A program made the position numbers and the translations under genes. The notes beneath the pieces are model-generated. The model searched no databases and was not told the origin of the DNA. It was given only the letters and a program-made list of their open reading frames with translations. Of a stretch of DNA of 32,000 nt, positions 3,451 through 29,790 are shown piece after piece. Origin of the DNA: Flavobacteriaceae bacterium (GTDB lineage Bacteria > Bacteroidota > Bacteroidia > Flavobacteriales > Flavobacteriaceae). How positions within the stretch are numbered: position 1 is the stretch's first letter; the number at the start of each line of letters is the position of its first letter. The DNA is taken from positions 2,130,001 through 2,162,000 of the forward strand of contig OZ245049.1 in assembly GCA_965224465.1 (NCBI GenBank). Direction: 5' to 3'.

Positions 3451-3488
3451 TAAAACCCCGTAATAATTCAATCAGATTACTGATGCTG

Positions 3489-3525
3489 TCAGCCTTTCAT
3501 ATCAAATGAAAGGCTGTTTGTTTTT
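3489..3525 (+). terminator. rho-independent terminator after the CAP gene
   Basis: Hairpin CAGCCTTTCAT-ATCAA-ATGAAAGGCTG followed by TTTGTTTTT. The IS66 element is inserted right behind it. Confidence 0.65.
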
Positions 3526-17232: not shown

Positions 17233-17294
17233 CGTTATTTTTTTCGTTTTAGGAAGGTGTTTTTAATGTTGCCAATAACCAGTGTCCAACATTG

Positions 17295-17302
17295 CAAAGC
17301 TA
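17295..17302 (-). promoter_or_regulatory. candidate -7 promoter box TAGCTTTG upstream of hcp copy 1
   Basis: TAnnTTTG match on the - strand about 55 nt upstream of the ATG. The same box is conserved at 23103-23110 and 25427-25434. Confidence 0.45.
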
Positions 17303-17659
17303 CCATCATTGAGTATCCATTTATCCTACAATGCAGCATTACGTTTATTATCCAGACACATATACCTGTAAGCGACTATCAAAGTTACATAAAATAGATA
17401 TATGCAATAATTGTTCTTTGACTGTATTTCCCTGTTTTTTTAGATACTTAAAAACCGTTACCTCAATATAGGCAATGCTTCAAAAAAGATAAAATTTAGA
17501 ACTAGACACTTATTTTTAGCTGTTTTTAACAGATAAAATTACAAATCGTTTACTCACAACGCTGAATTATCTGCACCTACTTATTAAAAAGGAAGGAAAC
17601 AATTTATATGAGCCATGTTGCTTTTTAGACAACAATTTAGTTAAACTTGATCTTTTAGA

Positions 17660-23041: not shown

Positions 23042-23102
23042 CGTTATTTTTTTCGTTTTAGGAAGGTGTTTTTAATGTTGCCAATATCCACGTCCAACAT
23101 TG

Positions 23103-23110
23103 CAAAGCTA
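23103..23110 (-). promoter_or_regulatory. candidate -7 promoter box TAGCTTTG upstream of hcp copy 2
   Basis: TAnnTTTG on the - strand, about 55 nt upstream of the ATG at 23041. Confidence 0.45.
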
Positions 23111-23608
23111 CCATCATTGAGTATCCATTTAACCTACAATGCAGCATTACGTTTATTATCCAGACACATATATCTAGTAAGCAACTATCAAAATTACATA
23201 AAATAGTTATATACAATAATTATTCTTTGATTGTATTTTCCTGTTTTTTTTGATACCTAAAAACCGTTACCTCAATATGGGAAATGCTTCAAAAAAGATA
23301 AAATTTAGAACTAGACACTTGTTTTTAGCTCTTTTTAACAGATAAAATTACAAATCGTTTACTCACAATGCTGAATTCTCTACACCTATTATTGAAAAGA
23401 AAGGAAACAATTTATATGAGCCATGTTGCTTTTTAGACAACAATTTAGTTAAACTTGATCTTTTAAAGCAGTAGTAATTGAACCGTGGCAACCACAATAA
23501 AACCCAACTAAAATTAGAAATACACACTGTTTTTTACAAAACAAATGAAATTATTTTATTTTTATAAATGCCCCGAAAACGATTGAACAATGCAGATTAC
23601 TGATGCTG

Positions 23609-24237: not shown

Positions 24238-25326
24238 CTAGTGAATATAAGAAAATTTAATAATTGTTTTCCCTTGAGAGTCTACTACTGCTGTTAACTG
24301 TTTATATTTATTATAAATATAAAAATGCTCTTTAATTACTTCGGGTGTTGGGTTTACAAATAAATCCGTTTCTTTTACTCCAATAAAATTTTCATCTTTA
24401 AAGATATAATCTGTTGAAATAATTTTATTAGGATATTCTTTGTTAACAGTTACATCTACTGTGTTTTTAATTTGTATCATTGTAAACGTTTCTTCGGTCC
24501 TAAATCGGGAGTATTTCTCATTAACACAACGCTTCTTATCATCATACATATATTCTATCACTTCTTTAGAAACACCCTCTTCGCGTTGCGTATATATTTT
24601 CTTAGTCCGTAACAAATTATCATAAAAATCATAAAATGATATAATTTGTAAACCATCTTTATTACACTGATTTACATTAAAAAGTTGCCCTTTGGCATCG
24701 AAAACATATTCTCTAGTAAAATTATATAGTTCATTAATTCCTGTATGTTTAGATCTTTTTAAATTGTCCTGCTCATATATATATTCAACCGATTTATATG
24801 GTTCGTTTTCAAAACCTGAATAAATTTTCCGTTTTAAAATTCTTCCTAGATCATCAAATTCTCTTTTTTCATTTGCGATTTCTGTAATTTGTCCGGTTCC
24901 ATTGAACTTTAATGCGCTTGGATACCCTAAATTATTTTTAGGAATTGTTTCTACAACTTCATTTGCTGTTGCACTTGTTCCAAATTCTTCTCCATTATTA
25001 ATAATTGTTCCTGCAGGGATTATTAGAAGATCTCGGTAACAATAATAACCGTTTTTCAAATTAAACATATAATCTCTGCCAGTGTTAATTGGCGCTAATT
25101 CTCCTGTTATATTGTACTTTTTTTCTATTCTTGTATCTAAATTCAATTCATTTTTCAATGTCCCTTTATAATTGTAAAATTTAACTTTATTTCCTTCTTT
25201 TTTATAGGCTAACTGTTTGTTGTTATAATATGCACTGTCTTTCATTTTTTGAGTAGCACTATCTTTAAGCCTTGTATTACAATTACTTAATTGAAGTGTA
25301 ATTAATATTAGAATTAGATTCCTCAT
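24238..25326 (-). CDS. large lipoprotein with repeated Y/G-rich beta-hairpin-like motifs (orphan immunity candidate)
   Basis: 362 aa. Signal peptide plus lipobox (LQLSNC). Preceded by a toxin-tail remnant and a copy of the hcp promoter region. Confidence 0.6.
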   Translation of the reverse strand: MRNLILILITLQLSNCNTRLKDSATQKMKDSAYYNNKQLAYKKEGNKVKFYNYKGTLKNELNLDTRIEKKYNITGELAPINTGRDYMFNLKNGYYCYRDLLIIPAGTIINNGEEFGTSATANEVVETIPKNNLGYPSALKFNGTGQITEIANEKREFDDLGRILKRKIYSGFENEPYKSVEYIYEQDNLKRSKHTGINELYNFTREYVFDAKGQLFNVNQCNKDGLQIISFYDFYDNLLRTKKIYTQREEGVSKEVIEYMYDDKKRCVNEKYSRFRTEETFTMIQIKNTVDVTVNKEYPNKIISTDYIFKDENFIGVKETDLFVNPTPEVIKEHFYIYNKYKQLTAVVDSQGKTIIKFSYIH

Positions 25327-25329
25327 GGA

Positions 25330-25395
25330 TTAGACATTCTTTTTTATTAAGTGAAGGGCTTTCTTTATTATATCCCATTGCCATTTAAAAAACGT
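25330..25395 (-). pseudogene. remnant of a metallopeptidase-toxin 3' end (TFFKWQWDIIKKALHLIKKNV*)
   Basis: Shares FFKWQW with the C-terminus of ORF 27131..27601. The stop is 3 nt before the ATG of the 362-aa lipoprotein. Confidence 0.6.
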
Positions 25396-25426
25396 TGCTT
25401 ATTGCTAATACCCCTATCCAACATTG

Positions 25427-25434
25427 CAAAGCTA
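25427..25434 (-). promoter_or_regulatory. third copy of the hcp -7 box TAGCTTTG, now upstream of an orphan immunity gene
   Basis: 25396-25745 is homologous to 17233-17615 and 23042-23415. Homology to the hcp 5' UTR stops about 30 nt downstream of the box. Confidence 0.45.
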
Positions 25435-25706
25435 TCATCATTGAGTATCCATTTAGCCTACAATACAGCATTACGTTTATTATTATTCAAATATACATAT
25501 ATCTACTAAGCAACTATCAAAGCTACATAAAATAGTTATATACAATAATTATTCTTTGATTGTATTTTCCTGTTTTTTTTGATACCTAAAAACAGTTACC
25601 TCAATTATGAGGCAATGCTTCAAAAAAGATAAAATTTAGAACTAGACACTTATTTTTAGCTGTTTTTAACAGATAAAATTACAAATCGTTTACTCACAAC
25701 GCTGAA

Positions 25707-25913
25707 TTATCTACACCGATTTATTGAAAAGGCAGGAAACAATTTGTACAGCTCATCATAATCTAAGTCTATACGTTTATCTAGTGGATATTCGCATGCC
25801 CGAATTAACTTCATGTAATGGTTTACCGTATTTAGAGAAACACCTACCCCACTCCCGATAGAACAGTTGCTTTCTCCATTTCTATGTAATGTAATATTTT
25901 GTTTTAAATCCAT
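25707..25913 (-). pseudogene. fragment encoding an IstA-like N-terminal helix-turn-helix, inside a ~180-bp insertion
   Basis: 68-aa ORF. GESNCSIGSGVGVSLNTVNHYMKLI resembles the HTH at the N-terminus of IS21 IstA. The block at about 25747-25925 is absent from the paralogous regions at about 17620 and about 23415. Confidence 0.3.
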
Positions 25914-26001
25914 CGAACCAAGTATATGAGCCCTGTTACTCTTTAGACAACAATTTAGTTAAACTTGATCTGTTAAAGTGGTACTAATTGAAACGTGGTA
26001 G

Positions 26002-26176
26002 CCAATAAGGAGAAGGAAAATGCATCTGTATCCAGAACATGTAAAAAACCACAACATTATTGCTGTGGTTTTATTGTTTCACAAAAGCCTGCTTAACCAT
26101 TACACTTAATAGCTGTGTGGCTTAACGTTGACAACACACGATAAAACACGTTAACGACGACGGTTATTCGTGCGCC
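26002..26176. repeat. repeat R, copy 4
   Basis: See copy 1. Has the best-formed hairpin: AAAACCACAAC-ATTATT-GCTGTGGTTTT. Confidence 0.8.
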
Positions 26177-26194
26177 AGCTGGGTTTTCTTTTTA

Positions 26195-29610: not shown

Positions 29611-29790
29611 AAAAATGATAAGGAGGAGGGAAATGTATGTATATCCAGCATGTAAAAAATCACAACATTATTGCTGTGGTTTTATTGTTTCACAAAAGCC
29701 TGCTTAACTCACGCTTAATGACTGTGTGGCTTAACGTTAACGACACACGATAAAACACGTTAGCGATGGCGGTTAATCGTGCGACAGCGG
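29611..29790. repeat. repeat R, copy 5
   Basis: See copy 1. Contiguous and in frame with the toxin fragment 29392..29610. Confidence 0.8.

Follow-up and report, generated by a model that had tools for sequence, protein, structure and literature searches.

In Rhs and CDI loci, toxin fragments followed by intact immunity genes are found downstream of or beside the active locus. Such orphans usually keep a conserved 5′ stretch of the toxin gene, which allows recombination back, and they are usually promoterless. For the T6SS, orphan immunity genes left after the loss or displacement of an effector were described in the auxiliary clusters of Vibrio cholerae, where illegitimate or short-homology recombination was invoked (Kirchberger et al., 2017, PMC5361080). 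The AID-1 and rAID-1 elements of gut Bacteroidales are T6SS orphan immunity arrays which protect against the toxins of competitors, rAID-1 being defined by a XerD-like recombinase gene at its 5′ end (Ross et al., 2019, bioRxiv 10.1101/471110). In Bacteroides fragilis, orphan immunity arrays are co-regulated with the T6SS through TetR orthologues (PNAS 2026, PMC13080023).

The locus described here belongs to a Flavobacteriaceae bacterium and was analyzed within a stretch of 32,000 nt (contig OZ245049.1, positions 2,130,001 to 2,162,000), in the following called the window. It probably represents the remains of a third hcp-effector-immunity cassette of the Bacteroidota type (T6SSiii), the immunity gene of which would be expressed from the upstream region that was retained.

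The hcp Cassettes of the Window

The window has a GC content of 30%. Nearly all of its genes, including all those relevant here, are encoded on the minus strand. Two almost identical cassettes were found, each consisting of an hcp gene, a gene for a 424-aa effector and a lipoprotein immunity gene. The genes hcp1 (17232-16564) and hcp2 (23041-22373) are 97.2% identical in their coding sequences and encode products of 222 aa each, which match the Pfam family TssD (PF17642, E = 3.4e-23). The two 424-aa effectors are 99.5% identical. The nearest relatives of these Hcp proteins are located on marine Flavobacteriia-type contigs, and the source genome encodes the further Hcp paralogues P0009 and P0011. 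Besides the two cassettes, the window contains displaced hcp fragments, further effector-immunity pairs and copies of the insertion sequences IS66, IS256, ISL3, IS30, and IS21.

In the hcp1 cassette the effector gene (16559-15285) is intact, and an IS256 copy (15016-13784) interrupts the immunity gene, leaving an N-terminal part at 15278-15069 and a C-terminal part at 13549-13091. Protection is presumably provided by the 254-aa immunity gene of the hcp2 cassette (21087-20323), which is intact. Upstream of hcp2, a MITE-like element of ~290 nt without transposase genes (23880-23593) is inserted. Its sequence is composed of matches to the two ends of the IS66 copy (5783-3473), with its right end identical to 3473-3524 at 52 of 52 positions. 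A related piece is located at 2313-2673. The unrelated locus L017 has two stretches of similar sequence, one of them ~130 nt before its hcp gene.

Two C-terminal Hcp fragments lacking the N-terminal TssD domain (9722-9342 and 20128-19955) precede effector genes or fragments of them (9339-8059 and 19952-19287, respectively), which suggests that they are traces of earlier displacement events anchored in hcp. The C-terminal extension of ~100 aa in Hcp proteins of this fragment type varies with the downstream effector. Both of these effectors share the N-terminal motif MAxTVxIKGYxNTKTTIKxPxV with the effectors of the loci L001 (3183-4817) and L004 (1929-3554), so that the motif is common to proteins with unrelated toxin domains, namely of DUF3289 type and metallopeptidases. 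It is missing from the 424-aa effector and may serve for loading or recognition in Hcp-linked delivery.

A Third Copy of the hcp Upstream Region

The features of the locus are listed in Table 1. The block of ~345 nt in front of the effector remnant is 92-93% identical to the sequence preceding both hcp genes. In detail, 25748-25396 aligns with 17606-17268 before hcp1 and with 23414-23076 before hcp2. Counted over ungapped columns, the block is 92.0% identical to the hcp1 region and 93.2% to the hcp2 region, compared to 93.5% between these two. An earlier, sequence-only reading of this DNA had claimed homology of 25396-25745 to the upstream regions of both hcp genes, and the alignments bear this out. 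The homologous spans are slightly shorter than the ones it had given (17233-17615 and 23042-23415), because the last ~35 nt directly before each hcp ATG (17267-17233 and 23075-23042) have no counterpart in the third copy. As the homology is to sequence in front of bona fide tssD genes, the block can be regarded as a paralogue of the hcp upstream region. It is a putative promoter region.

Table 1. Coordinates of the features of the third cassette locus within the window.
Feature	Position	Strand	Basis
Repeat of ~170 nt, ending in a terminator-like hairpin (26072-26045) and T-run	26019..26185	-	5 copies in the window
IS21-family left end and first ~62 codons of istA	25737..26004	-	tblastn, IstA alignment
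Third paralogue of the non-coding hcp upstream region (presumed promoter and leader)	25402..25745	-	92-93% identity
Terminator-like hairpin and T-run inside the block, upstream of all three boxes	25596..25615	-	Terminator scan
Distal candidate -7 box TAGCTTTG	25518..25525	-	Exact in 3/3 copies
Copy-specific candidate box TATATTTG	25488..25495	-	Made by a 5-nt insertion
Proximal candidate -7 box of sigma-A type TAGCTTTG	25427..25434	-	Exact TAnnTTTG, identical in 3/3 copies
Putative deletion junction AGCAATAAGCAACGT	25391..25405	-	Alignable to both parents, short microhomology
Effector tail stub ATFFKWQWDIIKKALHLIKKNV (22 codons and TAA)	25330..25398	-	77-79% nt identity to effector 3′ ends
Intact 362-aa lipoprotein gene, putative cognate immunity gene	24238..25326	-	Homologues directly downstream of effectors

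The sequence-only reading had also considered that the similarity might be confined to low-complexity AT-rich sequence. The block reached a local alignment score of 501 compared to 22.4±3.4 (maximum 41) in 200 shuffles, and 307 of its 348 6-mers are distinct. The block is therefore not low-complexity AT-rich sequence, and similarity by chance or low complexity was ruled out. A small conserved ORF in the block was rejected, as the reading frames differ between the copies. A structured RNA, riboswitch or sRNA was rejected as well, since Rfam gave no match at gathering or E-value thresholds. The folding of the block is not significant (z = 0.13), and the consensus fold of the three sequences is essentially without covariation.

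The promoter-proximal 29-mer had no match in the genome-contig and metagenome-contig collections, and the ~345-nt block was found neither in the plasmid collection nor in any of the fetched loci. Nor was it found before the hcp genes of L009 and L016, which are the closest outside relatives (81% and 83% Hcp identity, respectively), and a scan of metagenome contigs based on Hcp yielded no relatives. The block was thus found in the source genome only, and conservation across species is therefore not usable as evidence of function. With the nearest outside hcp genes, the similarity is limited to (TT)GGCAACATTA within the last ~45-60 nt before the ATG, and the block GGCAACATTAA is the sole upstream sequence which hcp1 and hcp2 have in common with the hcp genes of L009, L016, L010, and L017. 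An imperfect 12-nt inverted repeat, TTTGCAATGTTG and CAACATTAAAAA, is located at 17298-17260 before hcp1 and at 23106-23069 before hcp2. In both regions the proximal -7 box and the predicted start overlap with this repeat, and its downstream arm, which is lost at the junction of the third copy, coincides with GGCAACATTAA. This repeat may be an operator.

The IS21 Remnant and the Origin of the Third Copy

Directly upstream of the block lies an IS21 remnant which contains a 68-aa ORF (25913-25707). In a tblastn search of the plasmid collection with this ORF, 8 of 8 matches were located on the N-terminus of istA (best E = 5e-6), and it aligns to residues 5-66 of the IstA protein of Microscilla. 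The counterpart before hcp1 (17736-17659) is 75% identical to the left end of the Microscilla IS21. All three copies of the upstream region have such a left-end remnant between the ~170-nt repeat and the block, the counterparts spanning 17736-17610 and ~23484-23405. In the hcp1 and hcp2 copies the IS21 end is kept and ~175 nt including the start of istA are gone at an identical junction (CATATA/AATTG). The left end together with the istA start codon is intact in the third copy only. Since this copy keeps an istA remnant which the other two have lost, it was not derived from hcp1 or hcp2. The block had been read as a copy of the hcp promoter region, and this needs the correction that it was not taken from either hcp gene, because the remnant retained here was removed from both hcp regions by a shared deletion. 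The third copy is therefore the more ancestral form, standing at the head of its own cassette instead of being recently pasted in front of the immunity gene.

The block was also considered as degenerate istA coding sequence, which was rejected as the similarity to IstA ends at residue 66, and as an IS21 right end or MITE, which was rejected as its ends show no inverted-repeat relation and no similarity to the right end of the Microscilla IS21. The IS21 remnant stops at ~25737, which does not fit an outward promoter borne by the insertion sequence. The 8-nt direct repeat TTATTGGC is located at the junction of the ~170-nt repeat and IS21 as well as in the hcp leader. Since it extends across the IS21 terminus, it is not a target-site duplication.

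The Effector Remnant and the Lipoprotein Gene

The block is followed by a stub without an in-frame start codon (25398-25330). It had been described as a toxin-tail stub of 21 codons; it comprises 22 sense codons and a stop, and its assignment to an effector tail is upheld by homology at the 3′ end. Blastn aligned 25400-25330 at 77-79% identity with the last ~70 nt of the effector genes of L001-L004, which come from other Flavobacteriia, and this was the sole significant match between the 874-nt query 26200-25327 and these loci. At the protein level, ATFFKWQWDIIKKALHLIKKNV agrees in 15 of 22 residues with effector tails ending in TTFFKWQWDIIKKDPHIKEINV. The C-termini of the effectors read either TTFFKWQWDIIKKDPHIKEINV or TTFFKWQWDTIKKDPHIKKINV, with the consensus TTFFKWQWD(I/T)IKKDPHIK(E/K)INV before the stop codon. 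This homology identifies the stub as a real effector tail. An ATG within the stub opens another frame (ATGGCAATGGGATAT...) of ~33 codons, which overlaps the start of the lipoprotein gene (25384-25283, minus strand).

The 362-aa lipoprotein gene which had been noted behind the stub was found as claimed. Its product starts with MRNLILILITLQLSNC, a lipoprotein-type signal, and belongs to no Pfam or NCBIfam family. A search of the protein database gave only five relatives. The homologues show 37-39% identity at 99% coverage, by which the ORF is of full length, while many neighboring genes are interrupted by insertion sequences. In L001 and L004 the gene order is TssD (231 and 228 aa), a protein of 544 and 541 aa, and a lipoprotein homologue of 365 and 367 aa, respectively. 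The ATG of the homologue abuts the stop codon of the 544- or 541-aa gene. These lipoproteins correspond to the immunity homologues P0005 in L001 and P0003 in L004 (38-39% identity). The 544- and 541-aa proteins carry an HExxH motif and match Reprolysin_4 with 23.2 bits (cut-off 22). From the two loci, an ancestral unit of hcp, effector and immunity gene can be deduced. The intact cassette was seen in distant relatives only, as reflected by the 37-39% identity of the immunity proteins. The closest immunity homologue, P0002 (68% identity), is found on four short contigs, which are uninformative because all of them start 98 nt upstream of the gene, without an effector tail.

Homologues of the lipoprotein are thus encoded directly downstream of T6SS effector genes elsewhere, and the adjacent cognate effector is reduced to a 22-codon tail here, as expected for an orphan T6SS immunity gene. 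By conserved adjacency, the 362-aa lipoprotein is the putative immunity partner of a lost metallopeptidase effector. A protein search with the L004 effector gave 7 matches and none from the 5.24-Mb source contig, the word-based prefilter of this search being of limited sensitivity. Within the window, relatives of the effector are present only as 3′ fragments with the FKWQW tail, each before a different lipoprotein gene. It is likely that the gene is an orphan in the sense that the genome contains no intact cognate effector.

The Junction and the Presumed Deletion

Similarity of the hcp type extends to ~25402 (..GGTATTAGCAA) and fades within 25405-25391, and similarity of the effector type begins at ~25400. 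The sequence-only reading had let the similarity end about 30 nt downstream of the proximal box and had proposed a junction at about 25395-25400, to be defined by aligning the three regions. In this alignment the similarity ends 22-36 nt past the box, and the junction falls within the interval given in Table 1. The 15-nt sequence AGCAATAAGCAACGT can be aligned either to the hcp leader (TTGGCAACATT and GGCAACATT) or to the 3′ coding sequence of the effectors (AATAAAACxACxTT), the microhomology GCAAC.TT being shared by the endpoints. Such an alignment to both parents is the expected remainder of a deletion between short homologies. The missing DNA amounts to ~2.3 kb, as estimated from L001 and L004, and comprises ~35 nt of leader, ~690 nt of hcp and ~1,560 nt of effector sequence.

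The homologies, the junction, the intact immunity ORF and the gene order in the relatives are directly observed, and from them we infer the following history. The ancestral order would have been the ~170-nt terminator-bearing repeat, the IS21 left-end remnant, the ~345-nt upstream block, hcp (~230 aa), a metzincin-like effector (~540 aa, ending in FFKWQWDIIKK...NV) and the 362-aa lipoprotein. A single deletion of ~2.3 kb, with its endpoints in the hcp leader, ~20-30 nt behind the proximal -7 box, and in the 3′ end of the effector gene, would have taken the remaining leader, hcp and all of the effector except its last 22 codons. It was claimed before that Hcp and the effector had been replaced and the immunity gene left behind. 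Their loss and the intact immunity gene agree with this claim, and a deletion in place appears more likely than a replacement. The structural part of this history, i.e., a third cassette, a deletion in place and a junction at microhomology, is considered very likely.

By the deletion, the intact immunity gene would have come to lie ~95-100 nt downstream of the promoter candidates of its own cassette, and the upstream terminator hairpin would insulate it against read-through. Given these retained candidates and the insulation, the gene is probably transcribed alone from the retained region. The outcome would be a cell which is protected from the metallopeptidase toxin of competitors and does not make the toxin itself.

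The Orphan Array and the 170-nt Repeat

Upstream of the lipoprotein unit, and separated from it by the ~170-nt repeat at 26185-26019, an array of orphan modules is located (29610-26195). It contains 3′ fragments of metallopeptidase toxin genes with the conserved FKWQW tail, namely remnants of 72 aa (29610-29392), of 156 aa with the motif HEGAH (27601-27131) and of ~20 codons (~26663-26603). The small immunity-like genes which follow these remnants are all different (28252-27740, 27129-26653, and 26524-26195), and an IS30 copy (29286-28282) is inserted in the array. Two of four toxin remnants, one of them the 22-codon stub, are cut within a few nt of each other just before FFKWQW.

The ~170-nt repeat occurs five times within 24 kb, always at unit boundaries (minus strand, 5955-5795, 17915-17748, 24062-23893, 26185-26019, and 29795-29630). 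It is relatively GC-rich, ends in the hairpin CCACAGCAATAATGTTGTGG and a T-run, and lies a short way behind the final immunity-type gene of a unit in the copies examined. At its 3′ edge (..CTCCTTAT) it continues into an IS21 left end twice, into an IS66-type end twice and into a toxin 3′ fragment once. Neither an Rfam match nor covariation was found for the repeat. Its surroundings suggest that it is a hot spot of insertion or recombination or a cassette boundary.

Promoter Candidates

In the transcription start site map of F. psychrophilum, the sigma-A box TAnnTTTG is located at -12 to -5 (PMC9723704). Exact matches to this Bacteroidota sigma-A type -7 box start at 25434, 25495, and 25525 in the retained region. 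The proximal one, TAGCTTTG at 25434-25427, is where the sequence-only reading had placed it. Use of this box predicts a start near 25422 and a leader of ~96 nt, with the junction at about +20 to +30. The distal box differs between the copies at its two free positions only (TAGC, TAAC, or TAAT followed by TTTG), and the box TATATTTG is missing from the hcp1 and hcp2 copies. The published consensus of the -33 element is TTG or TTTG ~19-21 nt upstream of the -7 box. A canonical element with this spacing is absent for all three boxes: the nearest upstream TTG is 26 nt away from the proximal box, which has none at a spacing of 17-21 nt, and 17 nt away from the distal box. On the minus strand of the window TAnnTTTG occurs 31 times compared to ~20 expected occurrences, and a single match therefore has little predictive value. 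A sigma-70 promoter scan was discarded, as its counts equaled those of shuffles and its model is not relevant to this phylum. Three hcp paralogues of another Flavobacteriaceae MAG have an exact box in the place of the proximal box, 47 nt before the ATG, and a near-box is similarly placed in L009.

The preceding unit is closed by a terminator-like hairpin and T-run at 26072-26045. A further one at 25615-25596 has a longer stem in the third copy due to a 2-nt insertion, and no terminator-like site was detected between 25434 and the ATG of the lipoprotein gene. Taken together, transcription of the lipoprotein gene from the retained region has a slightly better than even chance. The inverted repeat lost its downstream arm in the deletion, which also splits GGCAACATTAA, and the regulation of the third copy may therefore differ from that of hcp. 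According to a further reading, which is improbable, the loss of half of the operator-like repeat would have made the orphan constitutive, with hcp still being regulated.

Alternative Readings of the Locus

The structure could be as reconstructed and the gene nevertheless a silent relic, if the deletion took a part of the leader on which promoter activity or the stability of the mRNA depends and decay is still pending. This would fit the breakpoint, which removes the downstream arm of TTTGCAATGTTG and CAACATTAAAAA overlapping the proximal box in hcp1 and hcp2 and splits the sequence shared with the four outside hcp genes, and it would fit surroundings which are rich in decaying genes and insertion sequences. 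Against such decay, the 362-aa ORF is complete including its lipoprotein signal, none of the three -7 boxes is disrupted, and the path from the boxes to the ATG is free of terminators. A silent gene appears unlikely. Somewhat less doubtful, though still on the improbable side, is expression from another start than the proximal one, i.e., from the distal box at 25525, the copy-specific box at 25495 or the istA promoter. The distal box is conserved save for its free positions and is preceded by a TTG at 17 nt, the box TATATTTG is unique to the third copy, and so is the intact IS21 left end with the istA start codon. A start at the istA promoter is opposed by the hairpin at 25615-25596, which separates the boxes from the IS21 remnant, and by the remnant having no exact -7 box. 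For the proximal box speaks, moreover, that other hcp loci have exact or near-exact boxes at this place, 47-70 nt before the ATG.

The deletion itself would be dispensable if the repeat, the IS21 remnant and the upstream region had been recombined in front of a pre-existing orphan belonging to an array from 29610 to 24238, with the ~170-nt repeat serving as a cassette boundary. The array of FKWQW-tailed toxin 3′ fragments and immunity-like lipoprotein genes does stand immediately upstream, its stub at ~26663-26603 is cut at nearly the same position of the toxin gene, and the repeat bounds every unit, the copy at 29638 being joined straight to a toxin fragment. The right edge of the block, on the other hand, falls in the middle of sequence which runs continuously from the leader into hcp in the hcp1 and hcp2 regions, and is therefore no natural end of an element. 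This edge shows neither an IS21 right end nor an inverted terminal repeat, no recombinase gene was found among the larger ORFs of the window, and relatives have hcp directly upstream of this effector family. Recombination onto a pre-existing orphan, including the boundary role which it assigns to the repeat, is hence given little credence. Equally small is the chance that the repeat, the IS21 remnant and the ~345-nt leader form a dedicated head of T6SSiii cassettes, which would be an insulated promoter and a recombination substrate yielding promoter-driven orphans. If true, this would amount to an integron-like or rAID-like accumulation of defense genes without a recognizable recombinase. The deletion in place, with expression from the retained region, is therefore kept as the preferred reading.

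Comparison With Known Orphan Immunity Systems

If the retained region is active, the locus represents a direct genetic route from being armed to being shielded only, in which one deletion drops the tube and toxin genes and the antidote stays under weapon-type control. The case is clean enough for a reconstruction at the sequence level and comes from a T6SSiii island of environmental Flavobacteriia, a setting that has received much less attention than Vibrio or gut Bacteroides. With its three paralogous upstream regions, the window moreover offers a natural allelic series in which an hcp promoter of this group could be mapped. The current understanding remains unchanged, since orphans with effector remnants and co-regulation with the T6SS are already documented. 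The case adds to the known orphan T6SS immunity genes, and its particular features are the presumed origin by internal deletion and the hcp-type upstream region that was kept.

The orphans of V. cholerae are alike in that an immunity gene without effector has a 3′ piece of the effector in front of it and that the cluster contains several effector-immunity modules and further orphans. The present orphan differs from them, as it appears to have been made by an internal deletion which kept its own upstream region, and not by displacement by a new module. Moreover, the system is of Bacteroidota type and Hcp-linked, unlike the VgrG-linked cassettes of V. cholerae. With the AID arrays the locus shares the phylum, the pseudogenized remnants and the repeated intergenic sequences. 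A Pfam scan of the larger ORFs in the 32-kb window revealed no tyrosine recombinase and only transposases of IS66, IS256, ISL3, IS30, and IS21, and the definition of rAID-1 therefore does not apply. AID arrays are furthermore carried on mobile elements apart from hcp cassettes, whereas the present orphans are situated among live hcp-effector-immunity cassettes and insertion sequences.

In comparison to Rhs and CDI orphans, only the extreme 3′ tail of the toxin gene is left here, and a promoter-like region is attached. The arrays of B. fragilis resemble the locus in that orphan immunity is under the transcriptional control of weapon genes, as a retained hcp-type promoter would bring about. There, the link is a trans-acting repressor with a diffusible ligand and was demonstrated by RNA-seq, whereas in the present locus it would be a duplicated cis-acting promoter region.
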